DNA of 56,090 nucleotides from Prorocentrum cordatum (lineage: Eukaryota). Positions 4,461 through 27,139 of the stretch are shown piece by piece (position 1 is the stretch's first letter; the number at the start of each line of letters is the position of its first letter). The notes beneath the pieces are model-generated. The model did no database searches. It was not told the origin of the DNA and was given only the letters and a program-made list of their open reading frames with translations. The stretch is from positions 62,001 to 118,090 of the forward strand of contig CAUYUJ010000113.1 in assembly GCA_963575745.1 (NCBI GenBank), in the 5' to 3' direction. The translations under genes and the position numbers were made by a program.

Positions 4461-4609
4461 ACCGCCCGAAAATCTCGGGGAAGCCCGAAACTCGTGCGCC
4501 CTTGGACGCCGGGCCGGCTCCACCCCCCCTTTTTAAGTTCCAGTGGGATCCCGACTCTTTTGGGACCGCTTCCAGGCCGGGCCCGCGGTTGGATGGGGAG
4601 CCGCCAATA

Positions 4610-5095: not shown

Positions 5096-5111
5096 CTGCG
5101 CTGAGCACCGG

Positions 5112-5212
5112 GAAGAAGAAGAAGAAGAAGAAGAAGAAGAAACATAAGAAATAAGTACTAATAATAATGATAATACTAATAATAGTAGTAATCATAATAC
5201 TAATAATACAAT
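5112..5212. repeat. (GAA)n followed by degenerate (AAT)n microsatellite
   Basis: Directly visible. Confidence 0.9.
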
Positions 5213-9650: not shown

Positions 9651-10496
9651 GAACCGCGGCGGGCTGTCTCGCCCCCCTTCTCCCCAGCGACCTCCGAGCC
9701 CTGCAGGAGCTGGAGGGCCTGGTGCGGCGGCGGCGGCTGCACAAAGTGGCGCGGGGCCGCGCCCGCCTGCTCGCCGCCCACTGCTGGGGGGAACCCGGGG
9801 GGAGGACAAGACAGGACAGGCGCCGACGTACGCCCCGGAAGCGGCTCTCTAAGAGCTCGGCGGGGGCGCCACAGCACCGAAGCTCAGATGTCGTAGCACG
9901 TGGCTACTTTGCGACATGGGCGGGGAGGAGTGGGACAAGGTTCCCCCAGCTCCTCTCCTCGCGAAACAAAATCCCGACTGCTAGCTTTTGGTCGCTTTCG
10001 ACCTCTGGGGGCCCTCACTGGGCCTCGGGACTATCATCAGAATTGCCCGGAATGAAACACTGATCCCTGGAGATGGGGTGCAGACCTCTGCGGGCCGACG
10101 TTGTGGGAAGATTTTGGCGTCGGAGCTCTGGGGAGGGCAGAGGAGAGATGGAGAGAGGGGATGGAGGGGAAGATGGAGGAGATGGGGGAGGTGAGGTGGG
10201 CAGGAGGAAGGGAGGACGTAGGAGTCGGGTGGGGTTCCTTGCAGGGCGCCGTTGTGTGCTCGCGTGGAGGACTGGAGCATGAGACGGAGGGAGGAAAGGG
10301 AGAGATGGGAGGGACGAGGGCAGGGGGCGGGGGAAAGGGGAGGGAGCAGAGGGGAGGTGGGCAAGCCAGGTGCGCTCGCGCCATATAGGAAGTCCTGCTT
10401 ATCATTCCCCCCCATCCCGTACCATTGTGTAGAGCTCCCTTCTGTTCGCACAGTCGAATATCGAATTGGACAATGACCCCGAAAGGGTGCGCGATG

Positions 10497-10737
10497 CATC
10501 GCATTGCATAGTATGGCATAGGAGAGCACCGCAATACGTAACATGGCATGGCATGGCGTGGGATTTCATAGCCAATCACTGCATAGCACAAGGCATGACA
10601 TGGCATCGCGGCACCAAACGTAGCACGGCATGCCATACCGTGGCATGGCGCGCAGCGATGTGGCATGTAGCATGGTATGGCCTTGCGCTGGATATAGCAA
10701 AATTGCAGAGCAAGCCATGGAGTGGCATGGCTGCATG
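10497..10737. repeat. degenerate pentanucleotide (CATGG/CATAG) satellite
   Basis: GCATGGCATGGC.., GCATAG.. units. Confidence 0.75.
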
Positions 10738-10981
10738 AACGGGGTTGCCGGAAAACCATGCTGGAGGACCGACAATTTTCAGATGAGGCTTGTGCCGCGG
10801 CGGGAGCCACATTTTGAAGGACCGAGAACGCGGAAATGAGGGCAGCGCTGCAGCGGGAGCACTTTGCGGAATGACATAAACTATGCAGATGATACCAGCG
10901 ATGCAGCGGGAACGCGGTCTTGAAGGAACCCAAGCTCCCTTTGGGTTTATCTGCGCCGTCTGGCATACGATCTTGTTTCAT

Positions 10982-11087
10982 CTTGTATAGTCTGATTGGT
11001 TGTAGACTGCAGGTTAAGTGGGAGGGGGTGTGGGCTCAGGTAGCCATTTTGGGTCCGTAGCGTTCGGCTCTGGCCGACGCGCGGGTG
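10982..11087 (+). repeat. split direct repeat A1 (106 bp)
   Basis: CTTGTATAGTCTGATTGG...GACGCGCGGGTG identical to 26245-26350. Confidence 0.97.
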
Positions 11088-11160
11088 TTCCAGGGGGCCG
11101 CGGGGCGGCCATAACCACAGCCGTGCTAGTCCGCGGACTAGGTAGCGCGCCTGTGGTGCC

Positions 11161-14100
11161 ATGGCTGTGGGCTTCCTGGGGGCGCACCTGATGATCTTGG
11201 TTACGGGCGGCGCTCTCACGGTCCAAGGGGCACTTGGCTGGCTGCCGTTCGGGCGCGGGGGACAGGAGGTCCCAGCGCCGACGCCGCCAGCCCTGCCCGG
11301 GCCGACAGCGCTGCCGGCAGGCGGTGGGGGGCGAGGCAAGGGGCGAGGACCGCCCGCCAAGCCCGCGCCTGCAGGGGGAAAGGGGCGAGGGCCGCAGGCC
11401 AAGCCCCCGGGGACGCCGGGCGTCCCACCGCCGCCGCGGTCAGGGTCGACTACAACGACCACGACCGCGGGCATCGGGCGCGTAGGCGAGGGCGAGCCCA
11501 CGGGCAGCCCAGCTACGCCGGCGTACGGAGGTAACAACGAGCCCACGGGCGCGCCTGGGCAGCCGTCCGCCCCGGGAAACCGGACGGGCGATGGTGAGCC
11601 TGACCTGCCGCGTGGGCTGGACGGGTATTGGGGGTGGAGTGGTTGGGTCCCGCACCTGCCCCATTGGTGGGCTGGCCGGAACGTACCCCCACCGCCGCCG
11701 CCGCCACCTACCCCGCCCCCGGAGGCGGGGCCGGGTCCCGGTTGGGGCTTCGCAGCCTGGGTCTTCGAGTTCGTGGGCTACGGAGCGTGGGTAAGCTCCC
11801 CCGACCACCCGGGCACGATCCGCACGAGTGGCGGATGGATTGGATCCGCCGTCGACCGCCTGGGCGTTAAGATGCTTGGGTACTGGTGGGAGACCGCGGT
11901 CCTATGCTTTGCCCTAGGCATTTTCACGTTCGTGTTGGGTGCCCTGGCTTTCATCGTCAACACCGCGGCCCAGCCTATGCTGTGGGCAGCCGGGGGACTC
12001 CGCTGGGCGTGGTACCAGATTACCCGGTGCTGCCAGCGACGCGGAGGCGATGGGCCCGGCGCCCATCTTCCCCCACCCCCTCCGACCCCCTTGCTGGTGC
12101 GCTGGCGCGGGCCGGGCTTGGGCGGCGTGGTGGAGACGGAGTTCTACACAAAGGGGGTCCGCGGCCGAGGGACCAATCGGGCGTACAACCACGTGCTTCT
12201 GCGTAAGCACGGGCAGGTGGCCCGCATCAGCTGCAACTTCGCGGACCGGTACCGACTGGACCGCCACGGGCTCAACATCAAGATCGGGCAGGTCCTGGGG
12301 TGCACCAGTCGCAAGTGGCGGCTGAACCTCGAGGAGACAGGGAATGTGCATCTATGTCGTGCCGTCGAGTGCGCCTCCTGTCCAGTGGCGCATCCCATGC
12401 ATGTCGACCAGTACGCGGCCATTGACCGCACACAGATCGTGGACTTGGCTGAGCACGGAAAGGCCACGGCCTGCCGGGCAGTCGGCGTGGGACTCCGGAA
12501 GGTGTTCGGGGTCGTCAAGTGGCTGCTTTGCTCACCCTGGTCGGTTCTCGGATGGCTGTGCCGGGGTCGGCCGGAGCCCCGCTACATCACCGACGCCACG
12601 GGCTATCGCCGCCTGGACATCGATTCGGAGAGCGAGGTGGAGGCGGAGGAGCGCCCCTGCCAAGCCGCACAAGTTGGGGCGCAGCTCGCGGGTGGCGCAC
12701 GCCCCCTCCAGCCGGAGGGGTGCGGCGACCGAGGGATGCAGGAGGCTACTGTTCTGCTACAGGAGGACGCGGAGGTGTCGGACGTCCCCCGGCCGGGGCA
12801 TTGTCTCAATGCACAGGTGCACCTCTGCGCCCACCATGCGCAGAAGTATCGGTCTACCCTGATCGGCCGCAAGTGCAGCCTCCCCACTTGTCTCCGCATG
12901 GCGAAGGGTAGCTGCGGGGGGGCCCCGATGTGCGGGGAACATCTCCGACGGGACGAGGGTCACACCGTGCGCGTCGAAGCGACGGTCCAACCTGGGATTC
13001 TCGGGGGCCTGCGCCGCCGCATGCGGGCGCGGGCTCCAAGCCCCGGCAGGGCGCGCGATTGGACTGCGCACGCCGCCGATGGGGTTGGCATAGCGCCCGG
13101 GCCGGTCTACCCCCCGCCTCTACCTCCCCCCGCTGCACCGCCACCGCCCGCCGTGGCCCCATCTGTCGATGTGGAGCCCACGGGGGCGCAGGCCCTAGCC
13201 TCTGGGCCGCAGCCGCGTCGCACACGCTCCGCGGAAGCAAGGGCCAACGGACGCTCACGGTCTGCCGACCGCGGAGCCCCGGGCGATCGGATCGCCCATC
13301 ACGGGTGGCTTCAGGAGCCCCTACTCGTGAAGGTCTGCCCGATACTTCCGGGCGACCCTCGGGGAGCCGAGGAGGCGTACGGCGCGCCCCCGGCGAGTCC
13401 TTGGTTTATTCTATTGGGAGAATGCGAGGGGCTCGACGTACGGGGCACTGGCGGGGACGCCCGACTTATCATCGGGACTAGCCTCGAGGGCGTCAGGGTG
13501 GAGGTCCCAGCCAGCGAAGTCGTACGGCACCCCCCTCCGCTGGAGGACGGGCGCTACCCGATAGATTGGATCAATCGGCTGCTGTACGAGGTCCCCCAAG
13601 GGGCTCGGGAAGTGGGGTTGCGTGTCATCGCCCACCACATCCCGCAGGATCTGCTGGCGATGTTACGCCAGGAGCAGTGGGACGGTGTGGACGTGGAAAG
13701 CGCGAGCGGCTGGAGGCGGCGCTACCTGACGAACACGGAGCGCCAGCAGCTGCAGCACGACCCGGTGCGCACACTCGGCCACCATCGGCGGGGCGGCGCG
13801 CAGGGGGCGCAGCCTGCGCCCGGGATGGAGGGCTTGCCCCGTCCAGCCCCCGTGGCGGCACCGTCGCGCTTGGCGGCGGCCGCCGCCGGCGTGAGCGAGG
13901 ATGCTGAGGAGCCCGACCCACTCGAAATGTTCATGGATTCCTTGCGAGCCGAGGATCTCAAAGGACGGGGGGGCCAAGCGGCGGCCCTCAGTGCATTAGG
14001 TATGGCCGCGGACCTGCTCGGGGTTCCGCTTGATCAGGCGGAACGGCAGCTGCGGCGGAGGGTCGCACAGGTGGCAGCGGCGGGCCCACTGGGGTCCGAC

Positions 14101-16245
14101 CTGGAGCGCGCCCTCGCGGATTTGGAGGATGCGCAGCTGGAAGCGCGCGCGCGGGAGCGTGCTGCGGCCGCCGACAGGGTTCCCCTGCAGGGCAGCCTCT
14201 CACGCGAGGGGTCGCGGAGTCGCTCGGCGCGGGGACGGGATCCCAGCCCGAAGCAGGGACCCCGACGCGAGCTCTTCGGGGCCATGCCCCCCATCCAACC
14301 CACGGGCCCACGACGGGGCTTGCTGGGTGATCGGGACCTGCTGGCACGCGATGGACGCGGGGGGGCCGCTCGTGGGGCCAATCCGCTCCTCGACGGGGCC
14401 TCGGTCCTTGGCCACCTCACTGGCCAGACGCCCCACGGGGGCGGCCTGGGTGGGGAGCGAGCTGGGGGCCCAGACGACGCCGGGGCGGCGGGCGCCCTGG
14501 GCGGGCTGACAGCCGAGGCCGAAGCCCAGATCATCGAGCGCCTGGATCGCCAGAACCGCCTCACCGAACGCCACGTCCTCGCCGCCGAGCGGCAGGCGCG
14601 GGCCACCGAGGGCGACAAGAAGGCCCGGGGCACCAGGGCAGGGATCGGTCGGGACGAGGAACTTGATCTTTACATAGCCCGGGGATGCAACACCTTCGTG
14701 GTTGAGGCCTGCGAGGGGATCACGGGGAAGGACTTGTTCGACTCTCTCAAGCGCATGTGTGCGCACTCCAAGAGCACGCTCAAGACGATCGGGTTTCCCT
14801 GCCTGGTTACCAACCGTGTGGCGCACGGCTACGCGGCGCTCGCCTTCGGGACGGGCCCTCACGACCTGGCGGTGGACGACTGCGTCCCCGCGCGTGACGA
14901 GGACTTCGATGGCTATCGGCTCCCTGTGGACGACAAGCTGGAGCCCCGCCAGCGGCCCGCCACCCACATGGCGACCTGGTTCAAGAGGGCCCGGTGCGAG
15001 ATCCAGATGTTCGAGTCCATCGTAGGGGTCGCACATGGGGCGGAGCGTCGGCGGTCGTTAGGGTTCTTGGAGGCGGCCTTCGAGAGGGACCCCTCGGAGT
15101 TCCCAGACCATTGGGTCAAGGATCTGTGGGAAGAGCTCCGAAGCACGTGGGTCGAGGAGTTACGGGAGCTGAGGCGTCGGCTCTGCCGAGAGCTCGACAC
15201 CGAGAACCCGAGGAGGGAGGACATCAAGTACATCCTACTCATGCCGGAGAACGGCTACGATTTGCCCCGAACGTTCGACCTCGGGGACCCGAACGCCTAC
15301 TACCAGCAGGTGGTCGTGCCCCGGCGCAAGGCCGCACTCACGCGCCTCCTCAATGGGCAGCTGAACGCCCACCTCACGAAGCGACCGCCCAAAGCGGGAG
15401 GGAGCGAGGAAATGGGCGATCCCCGGCCCACGGCGCAGGGGGATGACAGGCCCAAGGCGGGGGCTGGGCCCCAGCCGAAGGCGGGGCCCAAGGCGGGCAC
15501 CGGGGCCCCAGCGGGGACAGCCCCCAAGAGGGCGTACCCAGCGGGCAAGGAACTAACACGCCCGGAGCGTACGCGATCCGTGGCGCATGCGCCCCGCAAT
15601 AAGGACAACGTCCCTATCTGCTGGGGGGCCACCACGCACATGGGCTGCTCGCGGAAGGCTTGCGATTGCCCTAACTCCCATGACCCCATCAAGTCAACGC
15701 GCGGCTTGGACTACTCGGTAGTCATGCAGCTCACGAGGCGCGGGGGGCTCCTTGGGACGCCCCGGATCGATCCCAAGCAGGTGGATGGGATGATTGCGCA
15801 GCTGCGCTCGCAAGCCAAGGCAGCCGAGGCCGAGAAGGTTGGCGAGGACACCTCCCCACCTGCTGCCCCTGACTCCCAGAAGGAAAAGGGCCGTGGCCGT
15901 GGCAGCGGCTCGCGAGCAGCGGGCGACCCGGGCCCGGGGCAGGCCCCGGACGACTACACCGCGCTCCAGCTTACCGCGATGGAATCTGACCTCCGGGAAG
16001 CGGTTAAGGGCCCCGACTTCGGATGGCTCGAAGACCACGACCGCCCGCGCGCGGCGGCCACTTGGGACGCCCAGCCCGCGGGTGATGGGCCGGAGCTTCG
16101 CCTCAAACTCATGCAGGAGCTCGAATCCGAGGGCATCTTCGCGCCTCTGAAGGGGGCCGGCGAGTACTTGCAGAGCCACGTGCGCGGGCGCGTCTTGGGG
16201 GCGCGCCTGCGCGGGGAGCGGCTCACCCTGGAGCGAGCCCTCTAG
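11161..16245 (+). CDS. ORF1, 1694 aa Gag-like protein with N-terminal hydrophobic/TM segments, Cys/His clusters and C-terminal CCCH finger
   Basis: ATG 74 nt after A1; hydrophobic 11161-11244 and 11896-11958 (AVLCFALGIFTFVLGALAFIV); CCCH motif CWGATTHMGCSRKACDCPNSH at 15619-15681; lies upstream of RT. Confidence 0.85.
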   Translation: MAVGFLGAHLMILVTGGALTVQGALGWLPFGRGGQEVPAPTPPALPGPTALPAGGGGRGKGRGPPAKPAPAGGKGRGPQAKPPGTPGVPPPPRSGSTTTTTTAGIGRVGEGEPTGSPATPAYGGNNEPTGAPGQPSAPGNRTGDGEPDLPRGLDGYWGWSGWVPHLPHWWAGRNVPPPPPPPPTPPPEAGPGPGWGFAAWVFEFVGYGAWVSSPDHPGTIRTSGGWIGSAVDRLGVKMLGYWWETAVLCFALGIFTFVLGALAFIVNTAAQPMLWAAGGLRWAWYQITRCCQRRGGDGPGAHLPPPPPTPLLVRWRGPGLGGVVETEFYTKGVRGRGTNRAYNHVLLRKHGQVARISCNFADRYRLDRHGLNIKIGQVLGCTSRKWRLNLEETGNVHLCRAVECASCPVAHPMHVDQYAAIDRTQIVDLAEHGKATACRAVGVGLRKVFGVVKWLLCSPWSVLGWLCRGRPEPRYITDATGYRRLDIDSESEVEAEERPCQAAQVGAQLAGGARPLQPEGCGDRGMQEATVLLQEDAEVSDVPRPGHCLNAQVHLCAHHAQKYRSTLIGRKCSLPTCLRMAKGSCGGAPMCGEHLRRDEGHTVRVEATVQPGILGGLRRRMRARAPSPGRARDWTAHAADGVGIAPGPVYPPPLPPPAAPPPPAVAPSVDVEPTGAQALASGPQPRRTRSAEARANGRSRSADRGAPGDRIAHHGWLQEPLLVKVCPILPGDPRGAEEAYGAPPASPWFILLGECEGLDVRGTGGDARLIIGTSLEGVRVEVPASEVVRHPPPLEDGRYPIDWINRLLYEVPQGAREVGLRVIAHHIPQDLLAMLRQEQWDGVDVESASGWRRRYLTNTERQQLQHDPVRTLGHHRRGGAQGAQPAPGMEGLPRPAPVAAPSRLAAAAAGVSEDAEEPDPLEMFMDSLRAEDLKGRGGQAAALSALGMAADLLGVPLDQAERQLRRRVAQVAAAGPLGSDLERALADLEDAQLEARARERAAAADRVPLQGSLSREGSRSRSARGRDPSPKQGPRRELFGAMPPIQPTGPRRGLLGDRDLLARDGRGGAARGANPLLDGASVLGHLTGQTPHGGGLGGERAGGPDDAGAAGALGGLTAEAEAQIIERLDRQNRLTERHVLAAERQARATEGDKKARGTRAGIGRDEELDLYIARGCNTFVVEACEGITGKDLFDSLKRMCAHSKSTLKTIGFPCLVTNRVAHGYAALAFGTGPHDLAVDDCVPARDEDFDGYRLPVDDKLEPRQRPATHMATWFKRARCEIQMFESIVGVAHGAERRRSLGFLEAAFERDPSEFPDHWVKDLWEELRSTWVEELRELRRRLCRELDTENPRREDIKYILLMPENGYDLPRTFDLGDPNAYYQQVVVPRRKAALTRLLNGQLNAHLTKRPPKAGGSEEMGDPRPTAQGDDRPKAGAGPQPKAGPKAGTGAPAGTAPKRAYPAGKELTRPERTRSVAHAPRNKDNVPICWGATTHMGCSRKACDCPNSHDPIKSTRGLDYSVVMQLTRRGGLLGTPRIDPKQVDGMIAQLRSQAKAAEAEKVGEDTSPPAAPDSQKEKGRGRGSGSRAAGDPGPGQAPDDYTALQLTAMESDLREAVKGPDFGWLEDHDRPRAAATWDAQPAGDGPELRLKLMQELESEGIFAPLKGAGEYLQSHVRGRVLGARLRGERLTLERAL

Positions 16246-19200
16246 GAAGCCGTGGACCGAGGCCATCGGGGTCTCAGCAGCGAGGCAGCCGACCTGCATG
16301 AGGCGCTTAGCTGCGCCGCAGGATACGTCACCGAGGGCGGGGCCGAGGTTGGCCCGGTTGCGTGGGACACCGACGGGCTAATAGGCCGCGGGTCCTATAC
16401 CTTCTGGGACGGGGACACCCGCATCCAGTGGGACTTCATCGACTACCGGGACCGCCTCGGCCCTACAGAGGAGATGGGCCAGGCGATGGGCCTGGAGGTG
16501 GGCGACGCCGAGGAGCGGCAGTGCCTGCTACTGCACGTGGCTGCGGGTGTGCTCCTGCTACGCGCGGGCGAGGGCACAGGTGAGCCCAGCCCGGACGCGG
16601 TGCAGCAGTTGGCCGCGACGTATCGCCATGCACTATGGGAGGAGGCCCATGAGGCCCTGCGGGCCCTGGGCGACTCCCCACCGTGGATCACGGCCCTGGA
16701 GGCCGATGTCCGCTCCTACGTCCATGATGCGGTGCACCCGCACCACGACAAGGACTATCGCTGCCTGGCAGCATGCCCCGTCGCCGACCTCGACGCCGTC
16801 ACGCTCCAGGTGCACCGTGTCAACGGCAGTGGGCGCCTATGCGTGGACCACCTAATGGGGACGGGTGTCGGCGCGGAGGATCACGTAATTCCGCTCCTGA
16901 TCTGGCGTGGCCATATGCGCGCCTTGCGCCCACGCTCCCACGCGGAGGCGGCGGCCCTAGGCCAGCGCTGGGGGCACGCAGGACGCCTGTCCCGCGAGAT
17001 CGTAAGTGTCGGCTGGCGCGAGATGCTCGATGAAGGCCCGGACGTTGAACCCACCGTCCCGGGCAAGAGCGCGCCCTGCACCCACTGCAAGGCAGCGGAA
17101 GGTCGGGCGGGCCGCGCAGTGGGACGCGCGCCAGCCTCGTTCGGGGAACATCCAGCCGACGTCCAGGCACGCCTCCTGGAGGCGAACGCGATGCCGATTC
17201 GACACGACCCCGCGTTCGCGTACGGTTTGATCGCCCAGGAGGTGTACGCCGGTTCGGGAAATTGGTCGGCCGCGCTTCGCGCCGAGGGCATCCGGGTGCT
17301 GGAGCCGATCGAATATTACGACGACCCCCTCCGAGAGTCCGGCCCACGGCCGGATCATGACACCCTCGACCCAGCGGTTCGCGCGCGCCTACAGGAGGCC
17401 GCACGGACCCCCATGGGCCCCGACGTGGCCAACGTTTGGTGCTGGGGTACCCCGTGTGGCTCGCACACCGACCTCGGGCTCATGACCCAGCCGGGCGGGA
17501 CCCCGCAGGGCACCCGCACGTGGGAGCACCCCGAGGGGGATGGCTCCAAAGAGTTCGAGCGCGTGGGTAACAGCCACACACAGTTCACGTGCGACACCTG
17601 CCGCATCCTACACGACGCCGGCAAGGAGTTTCTCATCGAGTCCTCCTGCCCCTCGGGCCGCTACCCCAAGATTTGGGACCAGGCCCCGATGCACGAGCTG
17701 CGTCGAGCGACGGGGGCCATGATCGTCCCGATCCACATGTGCGCCTGGGGTAAGGCCCCGTCCGACGCGCCAGAGAGCCGCTATCGCAAGGGCAGCTGGT
17801 GGCTCGTCAGCCCCCGGCTGTACCTGCACGCTCTGCTGTTGGCGCGACGTTGCCCACGTGACCACCACCACGTCGAGCTGAAGGATCACGTGCCGGGCTC
17901 GGGCATTAAGCGCACCAAGGAGGCGCAGGTTTGGGCCCCCCGCCTTTGCGCCGCGTGGGCAAAGGTGTTGAAAGGGGCCTATCACCGCTGGTCGGTGAGC
18001 CAACTGCGTCGGCAGTTGGCGCCTATATGGGAGGATGGCCCGGGGGCGTCCCCCAAAATCGCCCGGGCGGAGGCGCCCGGGCGCCTGCAGGGCGTCGACT
18101 TCACTGGAATCGAGCGCCTGCAGGCCTCAGGGGACGGCTCAAAATGCGGTAGGCTTAGCCCAGCCATGCACCGAGCATTGGCGGGGCTTCCAAAGCCCCC
18201 ATTGGGCAAGGCACAGGGGGAGGTGAGTGCGGGCAAGACTCGACCCCCTTGCGAGGATCCGGCCAGAGATATCGCGGAGGACCTCGACGGGTGCAGCCCG
18301 GCGGAGCTGGCCACGGTCTACCTGACCTTCTGCACGGAGCACCCTGAGTACGACCCCGAAGCCATGCGGACCCTGGTGGGGCTGGGGGATCAGCTCCTCC
18401 AGCGGACGGGGTCCCTGAAGGAAGCGGCCGCGCTGCTTAGGCGCGCGCGCCACGAGCGCCTAGGCAACCCCCTTCGGGGTGTCCTGGGGGACAAGGTGCG
18501 ACGGTGTTTAAGCCGAGAGCACTTCGAGTACGTCCGGGAGCTAGCGGAAGGGGGAGCCTCCGCGCGGCGGGGCGCGCCGCGGAGGCGCGAGCGAGCCCAG
18601 CCGTACCCCAGCGTGCGAGCCCACATCGACGAGGCCTACCAGAAGGTATGGGCGGATGTGACCTGGGGGATCGTCCTGGTGGCTTCCCAGGCGGCAGAGG
18701 GTTTTCTGACGGAGCTGGTGGAAGCCCCCCTGGGGAGGGTACCGAAGCAGCTACCGGACAGGACCTTGTCGTCCGAAGGGCGTATGATCCACGCGATGCT
18801 CTCGGCCAACGCCGCCACACACAAGCGCGACCACCCGCCTGCCGTCCAGCCACGCCATCGGCAAGTGGCGAGGACGGCGGTATGGCATCGCGCGCGCCAC
18901 CCCGGAGCGCGCCTCCTCTGCGCCAAGCGGGACGTCTCGCGGGCCTTCAAGTGGCTGGACATCGCCCCGGCGGACGTCGGGGACTTTGGCACCTCATTGC
19001 CGGGGGCCCACGCTGGCATCGAGGGGGACGTCAGAGTCGTTTACCTAGCCATGGTGTTTGGGTGGACGGGAGCCCCAGGCAATTACATGATGCTCGCCCT
19101 GGCGGCGAGGGAGCTCCACGAGAGCTATCGGCCTGGGGAGCCGCACTGGCACGACACCACCCACTTCCACTCGGAGTGGCTCATGGATGACCCTGTGGTG

Positions 19201-22200
19201 GTGGAGCCCGACATTGGGGTCCGACCGTGGATGGCCTGCGACGCATTGGATGCCTCCATACGTGAGGTGTTTGGGTCCGAAGCAGTGAACGTCAGCAAGA
19301 GGGACGCCGAGGGGGAGCCTTCCACCACGCAGATTATCTGGGGGCTCAGTATGGACTTCGAGCGCGAGCGAGTTGGACTCCCGGAGCCCAAGGCCATGAA
19401 GATGCGCTTCCTACTGGCGGAGCCGGAGCTGAGCTTCGGCTGCCGCATGGTCCGGCTGCGAACCGCGAGGGAGCTAAGTGGGCTCGGCCAGTTCTGCGCC
19501 TGCGCAGCTCCAGCCCTGAGCCTGGAGCTCCCAGCGGTCCACCGGATGCTGTCGGGTGACCCAGGTCAGGCCTACGTCCATCCGCCGGGCGACCCCGAGA
19601 TGGTAGAGGCTGCGTGGGACGATTGGCACCAGACCCTGGATTGGCTGCGCGTCTGCTTTGAGATGCCGGTCGAGGGTAACTTCGAGACCTCCTTCGAGGG
19701 CCTGCTAGGCCTTCGCGAGGCCCTCGCACTCCCGGGGGCGCTCGGCAAGCTGCGCTGGCTGGGAGGCGATGCCACCCTGGATCGGATCGGTGCGCTGGAC
19801 TGGTCCTCGCGCGAGTACATCGTGGCGGAGGCGGCTCCCTATCTGGAGACGCTCCGCTCCGCCCCTGGGGTCACCTGGCAGGGGGAGGGGGAGATCATCG
19901 CGGTGGTCGAACTACTCTGCCTGATAGCCTTGGCGGCCGAGAAGGGCCCGGACTGGTTCCAGCTGCTATTGCCGTACGTCACTGACAACAGCAATGTCAG
20001 CCGCTGGCTGCGACGCCGCCGGGCACGGAACGCGGTGGCGCGCCACCTGCTTCGAGTCCTGGCCATGCTGGAGCTACGGTACAAGTTCCGGGTCCTGGAC
20101 GGGCTTTACTTACGGACTTACCACAACGAGCTGGCCGACTTCATTACTCGTGCCACGGTGGAGGAGGTACGCCAGCGGATGGCGGAGGCCGGATGGACCG
20201 AGCTGTCGCCGGCAGCACCGTGGGGCGAGCTGGTGGAGGAGGCCGCCCAGCGCGAGCTGCGGATGCCAGGAGACGACGGGCCCTGGCGCGCGGCTGCGCT
20301 CCAAGTCAAAGGAGCCCGGGAGGCCCTACCACGCTACGCCCCCCTGCAGGTCGAGGGGGCGCGGCTGCTGGAGGTGGGAACCGCGTGGCCCCCCTTTGGG
20401 GAGGCATGGGAGAGCCTCGGTGGGTCGGCGCTGCTAGCGCCGTGGGATGTCGGTGACCGATGGGACCCGGACGACGGGGACCATCCCAAGGACCCCACTG
20501 GGGCCCCACGGACCCGCTGGCTGTGCGTGTCACTATCGGAGGACCCCGGTGGACGCGAAGCGACGGGCCTGGAGCGGCTACTGATCACCATTCGGCCACT
20601 GGCCGTGTTGCTCGACGCCCCCGTCAACTACGCTGCAGTGCGGCTAGGGGCGCGCTTACGGCGCCTCGGCTATGTGGCACTCTCCCCAGAGACGCGCCTA
20701 CTGTGCACACACTTCGGCGACGTCACGGCACGCGCGCGGGCGGTCCAGGTTTGGGGTTGCGGAGAACGGGTTCGGGCACCGAGCCCCATACCCCCCCTGG
20801 GGCAGCCCTGCGTGGAGCCACGCGGCCTCTGCCAGCTCTGGAAAGAGGCAGGGCGGCCACCGCTGGATGAGCTCCGCCTGGACCTCAACAACGGCACCTT
20901 GCTCGTGGACCCTCGGATCTCGACGACGGGGGATCGCATGATGCCCTGGCCGCGCGGCACATGGCAGCCCGCGGGAGGCGGGCGGGCCCAGCGCGTGGTG
21001 ATTCATGATCCGCGCGGGCCCTGCCATACGGCACGGGCGAAGCCCGACCCGTTGAAGGGCTATGCGAACACCCTGATCCTGGAAGGGTCCGAGGGCGGCT
21101 GGACCGTGCGAGCCCTGCACCCGAAAGAAATCTGGTGCGCCCAGGGGGGCACGGCGGAGCTGTGGGATGCCTTGGGCCTTGGAGGTACGCCGATCGCCGA
21201 GCGCATGCGGCAGGCCGCTCGTGCACTCCCGCGTCGCACGGCCCGCTGGGTGCTCCAGTGGGCGGAGCGCCTGCTGAGGCAGGCCGTAGAGGCAGCGAGC
21301 GCAGGCGAGGCACCCGGGGCGCGCGCTGGCGTCGGACCCGATCACGACCGACTCGCTAACGACGAGATGGTTAAGCTGTGGCTAAAGGCCTGGCTTCAGG
21401 CCCCCGATCGCCCAAGCGGGCCATTCGAGGCTGCGCTGGAGGCGGGGAAGACGACGGACGACGCCGCTCGGTTGGCGGACCAGCTCGACCCCCCTGCTAC
21501 CGCGCGGTCCACCGCAGCAGGGGAGGACGGGGCAGGCGGGGAGCGGGTCGGGGCGGTGACCTTCGCTGTTCCGGAAGGCGCGGGCATGCCCAGGCCAAGC
21601 GCCATGGACGGCGTGGGCGGCGAGGCTCGCCCCCCGCGCAAGGCCCGCCGGCGTGCCCGCAGCGCCCCTGCTCCCGCGCTGGTGAAGCCCGCCGCCTGGC
21701 GGTACGCCGGCGGGGGCGCCCCGAAAGGGATTCAAGGTGAACTCACCGACCCCCGCGAGCTGGATGCGACCGCCACCGAGGCGATGTTGGCCAAGCTTGC
21801 CGAAGGGACGCGGGCCAATTACAGCGCCGGGTGGCGTAACTGGGTACTCTGGCGGAGGCTCCGAGGCCGGAGCCCATACCTGCAGGGGGAGACTCGGGAC
21901 GCCCGCCTTACGGATGAGGATGACCTCATCCGGTATGTCGTGTACCTGTACAAGGTGATGAAGAGGCGGGCCACGACCATCCGCCAGCGCCTGTTCGCCA
22001 TTCGATATGCCCACACCCTGGCCGGGTTTGGGGATGTGACCTCCGATCGGCGCCGGCTCTGGACCACGATCGAGGGACTCCGCCGCTGGGACGGAAAGGC
22101 GAAACGGAAGCTGCCGGCCACGCCCCGGATGTTGCGCTGGCTCCGCGAGTACTTGTTCGCCCACGGGACGGCCACGCGCCGGGAGGCGACCATCCTATGG

Positions 22201-25200
22201 GCGGCGCTTATGACGGGGTACTTCTTCATGCTCCGCGCGTCGGAGTATTTGGTCCAAGAGGACCGCTCCTGGAGCATGGGACGGGTGGTGCGTGGGCAGG
22301 ACGTACAGGGGATGCGCGGGGGTACACCCAGCGCAAGGCTCAGCGACTGCGATGAGGTAGTACTGACGATCACGTCGTCCAAGACGGACCAGTTTAACGC
22401 AGGTTGCGTACGCAACCATTACCGCTCGGGGGTGGAGTTGTGTGTCGTGGACGCACTCGCCGACCTCCAGAGGGAGCTGCCGGACCGGTTTGGACGAGGA
22501 ACCGAGGCGGGGCTCCCCCTGTTCCGCCGGCCCGATGGCCACCCGATTATGCGGGAGGAGGTGCAGGGGCTCCTCCAACTCGCGGCTGCCGCCTGCGGCG
22601 TGGACGCAGGCCAGATGGGATCCCACTCCCTGCGCATCGGGGGCGCGACGGCGTTGTACCACGCCTGTCGCGACCTGGAAGCGGTCAAGAGGTTCGGGAG
22701 GTGGTCCACGGACGCCTTCCACGGATACCTCTGGGAGGACCATCGGCGTCAGGCTCCATTCGCCCGAGGCATGGCGGAGGGCCACGCCTTATTGGCCCCG
22801 GGCGCCCGCGGTGACGACGGCGCCGCGGCCGGCGCCCGCCCCGACCAGTTGGCCGGGAGCGACCCGCCCCAGTTTGGGAGCGACCTGAGGCCCTCGGAAC
22901 GCCCGGCCTGGGCGCCCGGGCGCCCCCCCTGGGCGCGCCCTTCGGCGCGAGCAGGGTCACGCACGGAGGGGGAAGGAGAGGAGGAGCTGGTGAGATACGA
23001 GCCAGGGCGAGGAGTTAACGGGCGTGTGGGGAAGCAGCAGGCGGGTCCCACGGGTATTCAGGTCAGGGCGGGGGCTTCGCGTTGTGGGGGTATCCCGGTG
23101 GACCTCTCGCCCTCGACCCCCCTTTCGCTACCGCTCCCGATCGCCCCAGGCACGCCCACCTCCTCTTGGTCCTCTCATCCGCAGCCATCTTCCACTCCAG
23201 AGCGAGGCACGCGAGCAGCGCGCGCACCCCAGCCTCGCGCGCCAGCCGCGCCTCCGCCCCGCGCTCCGGCAGCGTACATCATGGGATTCCTGGTGGGCCT
23301 GGTGGCCCCGGACCAGAGCAAGGCGCGTGGCCATGACTACAGCATCATGGCGGTGAACCCCCTCGGCGTCGTCGTCTCGGGGGCCGCGCTGTCGGACGAG
23401 CTCCGGAGTGCCGCCCACAACATCCTGTACACGGTGGTGAACGAGCTGGACAGCGAGGACCTCGTCGAGGTGGTCAACCACGACCACGAAGCAGCCCCGT
23501 GCATCGCGGCGGCTTGCTTGGCCGCGGGGGCGAGCGAGGACCACGGCCAGCTGGTGATCGTCGACGGCAAGCGGGGCGCGTGGGGGGTGGGCGCGGGGCC
23601 GAATATCAAGGTCCAGCGCCAGGCGGCCAAGCTGGCGCTCGCCCTGGCCCAGTTCCAGGGGCAGCCCATGCCGGAGCTCCGCGAGCTCTGCAAGCACAAC
23701 AGGGGGCTGCTCGACATGATGCGCACAGTGGACGCGGAGGCGGTCGTGGAGCTCACCGACGTGGACGACGCCTCGAGCAGGGGCGAGGGGAGGTCGACCC
23801 CAGCCCCGGTCCTCGAGGCGGGAGAGGACGCGGTCACCGCGGCGCTGGCGCGCGCGGCCATCCAGGCTGCAGCGCGGCGCCAGAGCAAAGGCGCTCCAGC
23901 GGAGCGCCCGCGGCCCGCGCGGTCCCCGGGCCAAGAGCGCCTCGCCGAAGAGGTCCGCAAGCGCGAGAGGCGCCCTGCGCCCTTGCGCTCGCCCTCGCGC
24001 GCGAGGCGCCGCGATCGCGAGCGCGATGCGCCTCGCGATCGCGGGCGCAGGGGACAGGAGGAGGAGGCCGTCTTGAAACCCAAGACGGGCGGCGCCCCCC
24101 CGAAGGCCGACATCGTGAAGCGTGAGGCCGTCCTGAAGCCCAAGAGCGGGGGGGCGCCGCCGCGGTCCTTCGAGGTGAAGACCGAGGTGGAGGAGGCGCC
24201 AGGCGCGGGGGACGGGCCGCCCCAGCGCCAGCCGCGCTCGAGGAGCCGCCGTAGGCGCAAGGAGGAGCAGCGCCAGGGCGCCCAGCAGCAGCCCAGTGAC
24301 CAGCACGACGAGGGCGAGTCCATCATCCGCATCGAGCGGGTACCGCACCACGTCGATGCCGAGGTGGTCAGGCAGGTGGTCGTGCCCTTTGGGGTCGTCA
24401 AACACATCGCCTTCCTGTACGACCACCGCCACAAGCGGGAGCCGTGCGTGCTGGTGGAGTTCCAGCGCCGCGCTGACGCAAAGCGCGCGCGGGAGTGCAT
24501 GAGGTCGAACTATCGGTTCTACAAGACGGACCCGTGCACGGTGGTCACGGAGTGGGCGAGCCGACCTCGCGGCCCTGACCCAGGCAGCGACGGGGAGGAT
24601 GGCCCGACCATCCAGCCGCCTGCCTGCCCGACGTGCGCACTCAAGATGCGCTGGAGCTCCTTTGACCCGGGAGACGGTTGGGGTTGCGAGATGTGCCCCG
24701 CGGGCGGAGCTAACAGCGGAGCCCTGCGGTGGCACTGTAAGGGGTGCGACGTGAGCTACTGCGAGGCTTGCCGCGTCGCCTTCGGCAAACCCAAGACGGT
24801 GGTGGAGAAGGCCCGGCGGAGCGGCCACACCGTGCGGGAGGCGCCGGGCCCCAGTGCCGGCCATGGAGAGCGCCCCAGCACGGGTGCCACGGGTGCGGGG
24901 GCTGAGGGGGACCGCCCGCCGGGCGATCTCAGCTGGCCCAAGCGTGAGAGGTCGCCCAGCCGCAACCGGCCCAAGCGCGAGAGGTCGCCCAGCCGCAGTC
25001 TGGCGCGGGACCCAGCGTGGGCGCGGCGCGGCGACACCCCTCCCGGCCGCACGCGGCGTAAGACCGGGAAGCACGCTGGGCAGCTTCGCGCTCCTCGCGG
25101 CGGCTGGTACGAGCAGGAGAAAAAGCGGCGGCGTGCTGCCGCCGCGGAGGCCGCCGCGGGCGGGGGTGGGATCCCAGCCTGGCGTGGCAAGGGCGCGGGC

Positions 25201-25476
25201 GACAAGGGCGGCAAGGGCGGCAAGGTCAAGGGCAAGCACTCCGGCAAGGCCGCCAAGGGCTCCAAGAGCGGCGGCAAGGGCGACAAGAGCGGCAAGGGCG
25301 GCCACTCCAAGGGCGACCAGGGCAGCCGCGGCCGGAGTGAGCGTGACTGGCCCAGCGCGGACGGTCGCGCGTCGAGGGGCGGCGATGGCGGCAGCCCCCG
25401 GGACCCCAGTGAGCGCGGCGGAGACCGCAGCGGAGACGAGAGCCGCGACCGCCAGGGGAACACGCCCTCCATCTAG
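16246..25476 (+). CDS. pol: ORF2 polyprotein (~3076 codons, in frame with ORF1): putative Cys protease, C5-MTase, RT, RNase H, dead C5-MTase-like domain, tyrosine recombinase, RNA-binding tail
   Basis: Uninterrupted frame from the TAG at 16243-16245 to the TAG at 25474-25476; motifs detailed in the domain features; first in-frame ATG is at 16474. Confidence 0.92.
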   Translation, partial: EAVDRGHRGLSSEAADLHEALSCAAGYVTEGGAEVGPVAWDTDGLIGRGSYTFWDGDTRIQWDFIDYRDRLGPTEEMGQAMGLEVGDAEERQCLLLHVAAGVLLLRAGEGTGEPSPDAVQQLAATYRHALWEEAHEALRALGDSPPWITALEADVRSYVHDAVHPHHDKDYRCLAACPVADLDAVTLQVHRVNGSGRLCVDHLMGTGVGAEDHVIPLLIWRGHMRALRPRSHAEAAALGQRWGHAGRLSREIVSVGWREMLDEGPDVEPTVPGKSAPCTHCKAAEGRAGRAVGRAPASFGEHPADVQARLLEANAMPIRHDPAFAYGLIAQEVYAGSGNWSAALRAEGIRVLEPIEYYDDPLRESGPRPDHDTLDPAVRARLQEAARTPMGPDVANVWCWGTPCGSHTDLGLMTQPGGTPQGTRTWEHPEGDGSKEFERVGNSHTQFTCDTCRILHDAGKEFLIESSCPSGRYPKIWDQAPMHELRRATGAMIVPIHMCAWGKAPSDAPESRYRKGSWWLVSPRLYLHALLLARRCPRDHHHVELKDHVPGSGIKRTKEAQVWAPRLCAAWAKVLKGAYHRWSVSQLRRQLAPIWEDGPGASPKIARAEAPGRLQGVDFTGIERLQASGDGSKCGRLSPAMHRALAGLPKPPLGKAQGEVSAGKTRPPCEDPARDIAEDLDGCSPAELATVYLTFCTEHPEYDPEAMRTLVGLGDQLLQRTGSLKEAAALLRRARHERLGNPLRGVLGDKVRRCLSREHFEYVRELAEGGASARRGAPRRRERAQPYPSVRAHIDEAYQKVWADVTWGIVLVASQAAEGFLTELVEAPLGRVPKQLPDRTLSSEGRMIHAMLSANAATHKRDHPPAVQPRHRQVARTAVWHRARHPGARLLCAKRDVSRAFKWLDIAPADVGDFGTSLPGAHAGIEGDVRVVYLAMVFGWTGAPGNYMMLALAARELHESYRPGEPHWHDTTHFHSEWLMDDPVVVEPDIGVRPWMACDALDASIREVFGSEAVNVSKRDAEGEPSTTQIIWGLSMDFERERVGLPEPKAMKMRFLLAEPELSFGCRMVRLRTARELSGLGQFCACAAPALSLELPAVHRMLSGDPGQAYVHPPGDPEMVEAAWDDWHQTLDWLRVCFEMPVEGNFETSFEGLLGLREALALPGALGKLRWLGGDATLDRIGALDWSSREYIVAEAAPYLETLRSAPGVTWQGEGEIIAVVELLCLIALAAEKGPDWFQLLLPYVTDNSNVSRWLRRRRARNAVARHLLRVLAMLELRYKFRVLDGLYLRTYHNELADFITRATVEEVRQRMAEAGWTELSPAAPWGELVEEAAQRELRMPGDDGPWRAAALQVKGAREALPRYAPLQVEGARLLEVGTAWPPFGEAWESLGGSALLAPWDVGDRWDPDDGDHPKDPTGAPRTRWLCVSLSEDPGGREATGLERLLITIRPLAVLLDAPVNYAAVRLGARLRRLGYVALSPETRLLCTHFGDVTARARAVQVWGCGERVRAPSPIPPLGQPCVEPRGLCQLWKEAGRPPLDELRLDLNNGTLLVDPRISTTGDRMMPWPRGTWQPAGGGRAQRVVIHDPRGPCHTARAKPDPLKGYANTLILEGSEGGWTVRALHPKEIWCAQGGTAELWDALGLGGTPIAERMRQAARALPRRTARWVLQWAERLLRQAVEAASAGEAPGARAGVGPDHDRLANDEMVKLWLKAWLQAPDRPSGPFEAALEAGKTTDDAARLADQLDPPATARSTAAGEDGAGGERVGAVTFAVPEGAGMPRPSAMDGVGGEARPPRKARRRARSAPAPALVKPAAWRYAGGGAPKGIQGELTDPRELDATATEAMLAKLAEGTRANYSAGWRNWVLWRRLRGRSPYLQGETRDARLTDEDDLIRYVVYLYKVMKRRATTIRQRLFAIRYAHTLAGFGDVTSDRRRLWTTIEGLRRWDGKAKRKLPATPRMLRWLREYLFAHGTATRREATILWAALMTGYFFMLRASEYLVQEDRSWSMGRVVRGQDVQGMRGGTPSARLSDCDEVVLTITSSKTDQFNAGCVRNHYRSGVELCVVDALADLQRELPDRFGRGTEAGLPLFRRPDGHPIMREEVQGLLQLAAAACGVDAGQMGSHSLRIGGATALYHACRDLEAVKRFGRWSTDAFHGYLWEDHRRQAPFARGMAEGHALLAPGARGDDGAAAGARPDQLAGSDPPQFGSDLRPSERPAWAPGRPPWARPSARAGSRTEGEGEEELVRYEPGRGVNGRVGKQQAGPTGIQVRAGASRCGGIPVDLSPSTPLSLPLPIAPGTPTSSWSSHPQPSSTPERGTRAARAPQPRAPAAPPPRAPAAYIMGFLVGLVAPDQSKARGHDYSIMAVNPLGVVVSGAALSDELRSAAHNILYTVVNELDSEDLVEVVNHDHEAAPCIAAACLAAGASEDHGQLVIVDGKRGAWGVGAGPNIKVQRQAAKLALALAQFQGQPMPELRELCKHNRGLLDMMRTVDAEAVVELTDVDDASSRGEGRSTPAPVLEAGEDAVTAALARAAIQAAARRQSKGAPAERPRPARSPGQERLAEEVRKRERRPAPLRSPSRARRRDRERDAPRDRGRRGQEEEAVLKPKTGGAPPKADIVKREAVLKPKSGGAPPRSFEVKTEVEEAPGAGDGPPQRQPRSRSRRRRKEEQRQGAQQQPSDQHDEGESIIRIERVPHHVDAEVVRQVVVPFGVVKHIAFLYDHRHKREPCVLVEFQRRADAKRARECMRSNYRFYKTDPCTVVTEWASRPRGPDPGSDGEDGPTIQPPACPTCALKMRWSSFDPGDGWGCEMCPAGGANSGALRWHCKGCDVSYCEACRVAFGKPKTVVEKARRSGHTVREAPGPSAGHGERPSTGATGAGAEGDRPPGDLSWPKRERSPSRNRPKRERSPSRSLARDPAWARRGDTPPGRTRRKTGKHAGQLRAPRGGWYEQEKKRRRAAAAEAAAGGGGIPAWRGKGAGDKGGKGGKVKGKHSGKAAKGSKSGGKGDKSGKGGHSKGDQGSRGRSERDWPSADGRASRGGDGGSPRDPSERGGDRSGDESRDRQGNTPSI
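16500..16930 (+). other. putative OTU/papain-fold cysteine protease domain
   Basis: ERQCLLLHVAAG (Cys 16522) and IPLLIWRGHMRAL (His 16912) resemble OTU catalytic Cys-helix and strand-His motifs. Confidence 0.45.
17224..17980 (+). other. C5 cytosine DNA methyltransferase-like domain 1 (catalytic Cys retained)
   Basis: Motif I-like EVYAGSG (17239), motif IV WGTPC (Cys 17455), motif VI-like FLIESS, then MCAWG..YRKGSWWL, C..HHHVEL, AQVWAPRLCAAWA. Confidence 0.7.
18730..19520 (+). other. reverse transcriptase domain (DIRS/Ngaro-type)
   Basis: KRDVSRAFKWL (~18925), AMVFGWTGAPG (~19050), LMDD (19180-19191), IWGLSMD. Confidence 0.92.
19750..20150 (+). other. RNase H domain
   Basis: GGDAT, IAVVELL, VTDNSNV, HNELADFITR: D-E-D-D acidic set. 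Confidence 0.88.
20365..21260 (+). other. C5-MTase-like domain 2, apparently inactive
   Basis: FGDVTARAR (motif VIII-like, 20713) and RALHPKEIWCAQG (motif IX-like, 21109); no FxGxG, PC or ENV (LLEVGT, LCVSLSED, LLDAP at the expected positions). Confidence 0.5.
21775..22740 (+). other. tyrosine recombinase domain
   Basis: N-terminal LAEGTRANYSAGW; catalytic residues MLRASE (R 22234), SKTDQ (K 22381), HSLR (22624), GRW, AFHGY (Y 22726). Confidence 0.95.
24322..24558 (+). other. RNA recognition motif (RRM)
   Basis: IIRIERVPHHVDAEVVRQVVVPFGVVKHI (RNP2, helix, FG) and PCVLVEFQRRADAKRA (RNP1, helix). Confidence 0.75.
24625..24771 (+). other. 8-Cys zinc finger (four CxxC pairs, ZZ-like)
   Basis: CPTC..WGCEMC..RWHCKGCDVSYCEAC. 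Confidence 0.7.
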
Positions 25477-25570
25477 GCGTGGAGCCCCCCCCGTACCCCG
25501 ACGCCAGCGCCCGCGGCATCGCGGGCGCGGGCTGAAGGCGGCGGCCTGTGAGTGAGCCGGCCCTCCTCTC

Positions 25571-25721
25571 AGCCTACCGTGCGCAGGTGGCGCCTGCGAT
25601 CCTTTGAGCCTACGGTACGCAGGTGGCGCCTGCGATCTTCTTTCTTTTAGCCTACGGTACGCAGGTGGCGCCTGCGATCTTCTTTCTTTCAGCCTACGGT
25701 ACGCAGGTGGCGCCTGCGATC
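25571..25721 (+). repeat. four 31-bp hairpin-containing direct repeats in the 3' UTR
   Basis: AGCCTACGGTACGCAGGTGGCGCCTGCGATC (copy 1 has 2 variants) at 25571, 25607, 25649 and 25691; pyrimidine spacers of 5-11 nt. Confidence 0.95.
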
Positions 25722-26040
25722 CTCTCTCTTTGGAGGAGTTTAACTTTGCACGCACGTCGCGTGCTTCCTGGACCCGGCCGTGCCGCGCGTCTTGCGCGCC
25801 GTGCGGTCGGGGCCACACTTGCGCTCTGCGCCCGGCGCATCGTGCGCCGTCCCCTTTCGGTTCTTTTGCGCGCATCGCGCACGCGCCGCGCCCGCGCTCT
25901 GGGTGCGCGGGGCGCGGAAGGCCTCAAGGTTGCAGGCAAGTGGCCGCGCGCGCGAGGCTCTTGCAGCCTCTGGTTCCGCCCTCGCACTCGGGCGGGGCGT
26001 CCCCGCGCGCGCGGCTGCGTCTTTCTTTTCTCATGGCCGA

Positions 26041-26247
26041 GCGGCCGCAGGCGTGCCAGAGCGCGAGCGCGCGGGCCGTCAGGGCCCACGCGCTCGCGTT
26101 GAGCGTGGGGCCATCAGGGCCCACGCCCAGGCGGAGATGCGCGTCGCCACGCTGCCATGAAAATACCATCGCCCTGTCCTGGTCCCCCTCTCGTCCCCTC
26201 CTCTCCTCCTCTCCCTCCGTTGAGTGCACGCGTATCTCACTTAACTT
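26041..26247 (+). repeat. split direct repeat B1 (207 bp)
   Basis: Matches 26382-26588 except G26101 vs T26442. Confidence 0.97.
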
Positions 26248-26350
26248 GTATAGTCTGATTGGTTGTAGACTGCAGGTTAAGTGGGAGGGGGTGTGGGCTC
26301 AGGTAGCCATTTTGGGTCCGTAGCGTTCGGCTCTGGCCGACGCGCGGGTG
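26245..26350 (+). repeat. split direct repeat A2 (106 bp)
   Basis: Identical to A1; overlaps B1 by CTT. Confidence 0.97.
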
Positions 26351-26381
26351 CCCACCCACCCCGCTTTGCTCCCAGACGCCT

Positions 26382-26588
26382 GCGGCCGCAGGCGTGCCAG
26401 AGCGCGAGCGCGCGGGCCGTCAGGGCCCACGCGCTCGCGTTTAGCGTGGGGCCATCAGGGCCCACGCCCAGGCGGAGATGCGCGTCGCCACGCTGCCATG
26501 AAAATACCATCGCCCTGTCCTGGTCCCCCTCTCGTCCCCTCCTCTCCTCCTCTCCCTCCGTTGAGTGCACGCGTATCTCACTTAACTT
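26382..26588 (+). repeat. split direct repeat B2 (207 bp), 3' terminus
   Basis: Copy of B1 ending CACTTAACTT; 31-bp spacer from A2. Confidence 0.97.
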
Positions 26589-27139
26589 TCATTTTACGCA
26601 TGTGAACTCAGACCATCGCGAGGAGTCTTGTTATCGCTCCACACGCATCTCATCAAATCATATTATGCGCGCGCACTCGTTTATCAAAGCACATATTTCC
26701 AAAATCCCTTGCACAAGAATGTGGCGCAGTCCGCGCGCGCGCGTCGTCGCGCACGCATGTCGCAATCCTTACAATGCAATAGTGGTCGCCAGGATTTACG
26801 CCACATCGAAAACATACTGGACACATTTTTTGATGGCAACCGTAGTTGTCAAAACAAGATGCGCACGTGCGCTTGCGAGTTCTAGCGAAGACCATCGATG
26901 TTTTACATGTTCGTCAAATGCGACCACACCAGAATCTTGCGCGCGCTTGCTGGAATCATTCGGGCGCCCTGGCGCGGTTGCTGGTGGGGGGGCGCGATCC
27001 CTGTCAAAAAACACCACGCGGGCCGCTCGCGCGCGCTGGCCGCGCGCGCATGTCGAAATCTTCCTGACACTGGCAGAGATGCGTCAGCCAGCGCCAAGCA
27101 GGCGTCGCCACGTCGTCATCGTCGTCCGCCGTCAGCCTC

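Follow-up and report, generated by a model that had tools for sequence, protein, structure and literature searches.

What kind of retroelement lies between split direct repeats and fills the space between them with one reading frame of 4,772 codons? The question is raised by a 15.6-kb element (10982-26588) in a 56,090-nt stretch of the dinoflagellate Prorocentrum cordatum (assembly GCA_963575745.1, contig CAUYUJ010000113.1, positions 62,001 to 118,090 of the forward strand). This whole stretch is called the window below, and coordinates refer to it unless a related locus is named. The element is very probably a recently inserted, nonsense-mutated copy of a multi-copy dinoflagellate family of the DIRS order that encodes one polyprotein of about 4,770 residues. 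The polyprotein would consist, in this order, of a membrane-anchor-like region, a CCCH 'Gag-like' block, an OTU-like protease, a C5-cytosine methyltransferase, a reverse transcriptase (RT), an RNase H, a degenerate C5-methyltransferase fold, a tyrosine recombinase (YR) and a C-terminal tail.

Repeats, reading frame and copies

Repeat comparison and frame analysis gave the following features:

10982..11087, + strand: A1, 5' split direct repeat, 106 nt
11161..25476, + strand: single reading frame of 4772 codons, final stop counted, broken once by a TAG
16243..16245, + strand: in-frame TAG, a nonsense mutation private to this copy (GAG, Glu, in the family; contigs and aligned relatives)
25569..25731, + strand: four tandem 42-nt units in the 3' untranslated region
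26041..26247, + strand: B1 repeat
26245..26350, + strand: A2 repeat
26382..26588, + strand: B2 repeat, 3' end of the element

The repeats follow the layout A1...B1-A2-B2 at exactly the positions given in an earlier note, which had been made from the sequence without database searches. The two A copies showed no mismatch over 106 positions and the two B copies differed at one of 207 (26101 G versus 26442 T). B1 and A2 overlap in the CTT common to the end of one and the start of the other, and a spacer of 31 nt lies between A2 and B2. Because only 1 of the 313 repeat bases was mismatched, a recent insertion, as the earlier note had claimed, is supported. Inverted repeat pairs, and with them inverted terminal repeats like those of DIRS1, were absent from 9000-29000.

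The two stop-to-stop frames 11146-16245 and 16246-25476 form one frame with its first ATG at 11161 and a GC content of 73 / 56 / 82% at codon positions 1/2/3, so that the single frame with a single stop, also stated in the note, stands. Position 16243 reads G instead of T in all covering contigs of four public runs (4/4 in X3, 10/10 in X7, 1/1 in X8 and 2/2 in X1); therefore GAG is the family codon, and the TAG is confined to this copy. The column is occupied by L, E, Q or D in nine aligned relatives, and the alignment runs through this well conserved stretch without interruption. This copy is young but probably dead, with the open reading frame (ORF) of the family unbroken and the family itself active in appearance. 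Downstream of the frame, each of the four 42-nt units found with Tandem Repeats Finder is able to form a short GC hairpin (RNA fold -83 kcal/mol, z-score -4.61). In the related locus L004 the corresponding place (its positions 15012-15170) is taken by two tandem units of 80 nt, and such units may be a protein-binding or packaging signal.

We aligned contigs from the four runs to the element and placed 1589, 10360, 123 and 98 pieces. Because these pieces are spread across identity bands of at least 99%, 95-99% and 90-95%, the family is multi-copy and of mixed age. In the window, tblastn and blastn of the element gave no second copy. No contig joint among those listed for the four runs skipped the element, as an empty site would. 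Among the 40 best-supported of 505 listed between-copy differences, 29 fell on third codon positions and 30 were synonymous (p=4.7e-7), so that the giant frame has been maintained by purifying selection.

The same contigs bear on the idea that the locus is an assembly chimera, for which it could be said that no listed contig piece spans the whole element. The pieces come, however, from four runs of different studies, cover 30/30 bins of 10300-27300 and bridge the Gag/OTU, methyltransferase/RT, second methyltransferase/YR and tail regions, and tail depth is similar to that of the core in all four runs. Complete coverage and similar depth both speak against a chimera, and also against the tail being a host gene of single copy. 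As independent relatives are also collinear, a chimera is scarcely credible.

Predicted domains of the polyprotein

AlphaFold models were made for two parts of P0002, the translation of the frame after the TAG (16246-25473), to which residue numbers refer unless they are given for the polyprotein. Model 1 covers P0002 1-700 (6-sequence alignment; predicted local distance difference test, pLDDT, 64.4) and model 2 covers P0002 690-1720 (20-sequence alignment, pLDDT 76.4). Together with hydropathy, conservation and profile matches they suggested the following domains:

11161..11223, + strand: N-terminal hydrophobic, signal-anchor-like segment, the first 21 residues from the ATG (Kyte-Doolittle hydropathy only)
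11734..13041, + strand: conserved N-terminal block with Cys-rich stretches (polyprotein 197-632; 34-38% identity to the relatives P0003 and P0004)
14551..16242, + strand: conserved 'Gag-like' block (conservation and position)
16333..17055, + strand: OTU-like cysteine protease domain, P0002 30-270 (predicted fold, moderate support)
17188..18036, + strand: C5-cytosine methyltransferase-fold domain 1, P0002 315-597 (predicted fold and motifs)
18460..19692, + strand: reverse transcriptase, P0002 739-1149, motif A Asp896, motif C LMDD 979-982 (predicted fold)
19744..20166, + strand: RNase H, P0002 1167-1307, with D1175, E1222, D1247 and D1298 (predicted fold)
20356..21303, + strand: C5-methyltransferase-fold domain 2, P0002 1371-1686 (predicted fold)
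21763..22770, + strand: tyrosine recombinase, P0002 about 1840-2175 (sub-threshold profile matches and catalytic residues)
24328..24507, + strand: RRM-like domain, P0002 2695-2754 (Pfam RRM_1, E 4.7e-4, 20.4 bits against a cut-off of 20.7)
24625..24774, + strand: eight-cysteine zinc-finger-like stretch (sequence reading, no family match)

The earlier note had read a cysteine protease, a C5-methyltransferase, RT, RNase H, a dead methyltransferase and a YR from the letters and had asked for fold searches on models. Searches with the two models supported the protease, both methyltransferase folds, RT and RNase H, the protease with moderate support, and the YR was recovered through its profile matches and conserved catalytic residues. 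Sequence libraries gave little for the same protein. Pfam on both halves (4,775 residues) returned just two weak matches, RRM_1 and Phage_integrase; phmmer against PDB sequences gave no match; and a family profile from RT to YR, compared with PDB, gave only DnaJ from the relatives and noise. PHROGs had no match to the YR, the tail or the N-terminus. Standard screens based on Pfam miss nearly all domains of this family.

The RT and RNase H expected of a DIRS-order element are supported as predicted folds. The YR retains R1997, K2046, H2127, R2130, W2153 and Y2161, all of them except R2130 invariant in a four-sequence alignment. Pfam Phage_integrase matched with an E value of 0.01 here and of 1.1e-5, 1.9e-5, 6.6e-5 and 2.2e-4 in relatives, and XerC/XerD-type profiles of NCBIfam with 0.011 here and 4.9e-5 and 6.4e-5 in relatives, where the matches always fell on the catalytic C-terminal part. 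Pfam detected no integrase core in this protein. A tyrosine recombinase in place of a DDE integrase is therefore supported by these profile matches and residues.

For methyltransferase domain 1, the best 50 Foldseek matches listed for model 1 were nearly all DNMT3A/B, DIM2, DNMT1, M.HhaI and M.HaeIII. Motif I (YAGSG) follows strand 1, motif IV (TPC) follows strand 4 and motif VI (IES) closes strand 5. The motif residues were conserved at 81/81 (G), 89/107 (P), 100/107 (C) and 117/119 (E) across 161 aligned segments, which came from 155 proteins of the family, and the domain family comprised 364 representative clusters at E<=1e-3. Pfam DNA_methylase was found neither in this protein, nor in 10 polyprotein relatives scanned, nor in the 45 scanned of 150 listed relatives of the domain. 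There is no obvious target-recognition domain or motif IX by reading of the sequence, with about 40 residues between the motif VIII-like and X-like stretches. A library of viral folds returned phage and giant-virus cytosine methyltransferases, as well as long RNA-virus replicase matches of high root-mean-square deviation that we leave uninterpreted. A C5-methyltransferase with intact catalytic motifs is supported by this predicted fold, and activity is predicted.

Domain 2, which follows RNase H, matched exclusively C5-cytosine methyltransferases among the best 50 matches listed, with Dam absent from these. It keeps stretches like motifs VIII, IX and X. Because GxG, the Pro-Cys nucleophile and ENV are missing, the predicted domain fits a catalytically 'dead' methyltransferase fold. 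Comparison of the domain-1 and domain-2 profiles with hhalign gave a probability of 0.08%, i.e. no detectable sequence kinship, and a search for domain-2 homologues at longer lengths gave no match, which is weak evidence.

Upstream of domain 1, the predicted fold gives moderate support to an OTU-type cysteine protease. In model 1 the candidate catalytic Cys93 (16522-16524) lies just ahead of a helix and His223 (16912-16914) begins a strand, the G-H-x-R around His223 being invariant in 6 sequences. The Atlas lead to OTU had a score of 0.90, with only 19% of the members carrying the family.

A membrane-bound Gag had also been proposed. Hydropathy, conservation and a CCCH-type zinc finger (15619-15681, within the 'Gag-like' block) agree with that part of the proposal; the Gag role of 14551-16242 would follow from position, conservation and the finger, and the Gag identity itself stays inferential. 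The Atlas search with this block returned only unnamed eukaryotic clusters (0.94-0.95). Transmembrane-like (TM-like) segments were indicated by hydropathy at polyprotein 1-26 and 247-276, the second (11884-11973) being a strong one inside the N-terminal block with a Kyte-Doolittle score of 2.64. These conserved segments, and a single polyprotein with a protease-like domain, could also suit a virus-like endogenous retroelement that uses its N-terminal membrane protein to spread from cell to cell. In keeping with such a reading, near-identical sequence occurred in runs of 14 studies under several organism labels, marine and freshwater metagenomes among them; RNA data were absent from the listed runs carrying it. 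A common host would explain the wide occurrence equally well, however, split repeats with a recombinase are typical of chromosomal retrotransposons, and no capsid or fusion-protein fold turned up, though no search was aimed at them. We regard a virus-like nature as improbable and keep to a retrotransposon of the DIRS order.

In the tail, the RRM_1 match agrees with the RNA-binding module claimed before, yet it falls just below its cut-off. The zinc-finger-like stretch is followed by Arg/Ser-rich and Lys/Gly-rich low-complexity sequence up to 25473. The TM segments, the CCCH 'Gag-like' block and the RRM are weaker as domain calls than the enzymatic folds.

Several points weigh against the reading of the element as a DIRS-order copy with this polyprotein. 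The RT, the RNase H, the protease and both methyltransferases went unrecognised in every sequence library used, and these assignments come from AlphaFold models of middling confidence. Cys404 of domain 1 is a candidate for the nucleophile, and all YR matches lie under curated cut-offs. Because of its premature stop, this copy would itself need readthrough to produce the pol half. The steps of processing, circle formation, methylation and integration are proposals. The ends of the element add a further point. TTTCAT stands directly outside A1 (10976-10981) and again at the end of B2 (26587-26592), and in the distant relative L017 AATAGAT lies on either side (about 4217-4223 and 16780-16786 of that locus). 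These look like a target duplication of 6-7 bp, and an apparent 6-bp duplication is unexpected from a conservative recombinase; DIRS-order elements are not known to make a target-site duplication. The ends of the element are equally compatible with a 3-bp CTT crossover and no duplication.

Relatives and described elements

A search with the RT-RNase H region found 19 proteins of 1,705-4,809 residues with 34-54% identity. All 19 are from dinoflagellates, those with species or genus names being Cladocopium goreaui, Polarella glacialis, Prorocentrum cordatum and Symbiodinium; taken together, relatives in these genera span 29-54% identity. In BLASTP, three conserved blocks were collinear with relatives, namely polyprotein 197-632, about 1136-2298 and 2389-3915. 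In public dinoflagellate genomes such elements are annotated as giant 'unnamed' or 'XerD-like' host proteins, and their recognition would clean gene sets. The precomputed label PF26692 on relatives is absent from the Pfam version used, and no identity was assigned to it.

The last 860 residues (polyprotein 3916-4776) are not common to the 19 relatives, which carry DnaJ, Tpt1/KptA RNA 2'-phosphotransferase or KH domains where the tail stands here; NADAR occurs in one relative of methyltransferase domain 1. Accessory domains differ among relatives (P0005, P0007, P0009, P0014, P0015, P0017 and P0170) and therefore these modules turn over. The only match to the tail itself was a 97%-identical protein, i.e. 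another copy. Such turnover might mean that the great length came from captured host sequence or nested insertions, in the tail or in the N-terminal membrane region, and that there is no coherent polyprotein. The tail is in the same frame, however, free of stops and similar to the core in contig depth in the four runs; the N-terminal and Gag-like blocks keep their order in relatives with 34-40% identity, and the intact relative L004 has a single ORF. We therefore think capture or nesting unlikely as the source of the length. Under the preferred reading of one polyprotein, the tail with its RRM, zinc-finger-like stretch and Arg/Ser-rich sequence is lineage-specific.

A metagenome scan gave 22 related loci, the seven longest of which were scanned for repeats. 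L004 (40% identity) has the A1...B1-A2-B2 layout, with the contig ending within B2, and one unbroken ORF of 4,809 codons in which no stop separates RNase H from YR. L017 (34% identity; its positions 4224-16778, 12.6 kb) has the same layout with repeats 99-100% identical, and its five ORFs of 463-1,326 residues, two of them overlapping, may represent a multi-ORF state. The other five loci stop short of one or both element ends. Since L017 is divided into five ORFs, the single-ORF state, judged from these sequences, is the mark of a sub-lineage and not of every relative.

How far does the family agree with what has been described? Ngaro and PAT-like elements, which Goodwin and Poulter reportedly described in 2004 within the DIRS order, share with it the split direct repeats A1...B1-A2-B2, RT-RNase H, YR and the apparent lack of an integrase of the long terminal repeat (LTR) type. 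Their ORFs are separate or overlapping and are not known to include a protease. DIRS-order elements in general are usually described as free of a protease and with separate gag, pol and recombinase ORFs, a picture that is altered by a fused ORF of about 4,800 codons with a protease-like domain, which also offers a concrete system for studying protein processing in tyrosine-recombinase retroelements. Here RNase H is followed by a methyltransferase fold, whereas Ngaro is not known to carry one at that place. The name 'Ngaro-type' chosen in the earlier note thus holds only by repeat layout, and not by what follows RNase H.

DIRS1 and PAT have a methyltransferase after RNase H which is of the Dam-like adenine type, in the available part of the source (bioRxiv 10.64898/2026.05.21.726589), while the fold predicted at this position here is of the C5 type. 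The same source, as far as available, describes EpiLTRs and DAM-TEs, which are LTR elements with Dam, DNMT and a chromodomain; they resemble this family in that retrotransposons combine more than one DNA-methylation module, but the present element has a YR and two folds of C5 type. Proteases like OTU are known from Helentrons and Ginger (PMC6431247; PMC2836005, from the portions available), i.e. also on eukaryotic mobile elements, although those are DNA transposons. In the literature searched, no tyrosine-recombinase retrotransposon with an OTU-like domain came up. The same held for the full combination and arrangement of domains, which the earlier note had not known as described (mostly titles and abstract openings were covered, with Repbase and Dfam outside the search).

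Of the kinds described so far, SymbioDIRS-Dnmt3 (de Mendoza et al. 2018, PMC5890265) comes closest; the note had mentioned methyltransferase-carrying DIRS elements from Symbiodiniaceae. According to the available part of that paper, these elements have A-coding-B-A-B repeats, a YR and a C5 methyltransferase in the pol region, placed before or after the RT in two domain orders, and their DNMTs, detected by Pfam and belonging to the Dnmt3 clade, carry out de novo CG methylation in yeast; RTs of Symbiodinium DIRS elements align poorly with Pfam seeds. The element might then be a plain member of SymbioDIRS-Dnmt3 and its further features a matter of annotation detail, since host group, repeat layout, C5 methyltransferase in pol and an RT missed by Pfam are all shared and both domain orders are known there. 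Against this, the YR is fused in frame here, with no stop after RNase H, and is in a separate ORF there. The present element has two methyltransferase folds, of which just one retains catalytic motifs, and Pfam misses both, as it does in the scanned relatives counted above. The OTU-like protease, the TM-like segments and the tail with RRM and zinc finger go unmentioned in the part of the paper available. Plain membership is unlikely, if slightly less so than host capture, and we retain the reading of a distinct family with a giant polyprotein. Two cytosine-methyltransferase folds in one element would be relevant to the idea, already proposed, that the unusual CG-methylated genomes of dinoflagellates were shaped by methyltransferases of retrotransposons.

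Spliced-leader relics, proposed mechanism and flanks

Both A copies contain the exact 13-nt core of the dinoflagellate spliced leader (sequence per PMC6050394), at 11040-11052 and 26303-26315, and further leader-like pieces flank the core within the A repeats. A degenerate array of leader relics lies at about 49600-49670. In the window there were 3 matches to the core, with 0.04 expected. The A repeat of L004 ends in leader-like ...GCTCAAG... pieces. The relics suggest that spliced-leader-capped RNA of the element was once reverse transcribed.

From these parts a mechanism can be proposed. RNA would be transcribed from within A1 to B2 and at some time would have been spliced-leader-capped, as the relic in A suggests. 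The polyprotein might be cut by the OTU-like protease, by analogy with the OTU/papain-like proteases that process viral polyproteins. RT and RNase H would make cDNA, and the internal B1-A2 junction might close it into a circle, as in the model that Goodwin and Poulter are said to have given for split-repeat elements. Methyltransferase domain 1 could methylate the cDNA, as has been proposed for SymbioDIRS-Dnmt3, with domain 2 as a possible non-catalytic DNA-binding or regulatory partner. The recombinase would insert the circle at the B/A junction, with CTT common to element and target.

Run X1 contains an 817-nt contig that leads from B (26130-26244) through A into the 5' internal region up to 11680 (10982-11680). 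A circle or a tandem pair would be expected to give this form; a k-mer assembly path through the 106-nt repeat can give the same, and we do not count the contig as evidence.

A bolder and tentative reading, for which the odds are well short of even, is that a dinoflagellate-wide lineage of YR retroelements converged on an expression strategy like that of RNA viruses. A membrane-anchored giant polyprotein would cut itself by its OTU-type protease, a pair of catalytic and dead C5-methyltransferases would methylate the element's own cDNA before insertion, trans-splicing of the spliced leader would cap the RNA, and exchangeable C-terminal modules, RRM and zinc finger here and DnaJ, Tpt1/KptA or KH in relatives, would tune the interaction with the host. 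The methyltransferase pair might then divide the labour between a catalytic core without target-recognition domain and a complete but catalytically dead fold, a pairing that loosely recalls DNMT3A and DNMT3L.

The surroundings of the element are repetitive. The flanks 10300-10866 and 26176-26742 are high-copy repeats with a summed depth of 2500-3400, compared with about 250-750 inside the element (X3 and X7), and a 34-nt island (10829-10862) is the sole stretch common to many contigs. Nine neighbouring ORFs had no Pfam match. A long imperfect triplet array of GAC/GAT type at 34017-34500 would encode an Asp-rich stretch on the + strand, and four tandem units of about 151 nt with 72-98% identity occupy 54220-54859. 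At 295-448 lies an inverted repeat of 76 nt whose arms are 87% complementary and enclose a loop of 2 nt. Just 3' of the element, a 143-nt direct repeat pair with 80% identity (27149-27291 and 37973-38115, 10.8 kb apart) may mark another mobile element.

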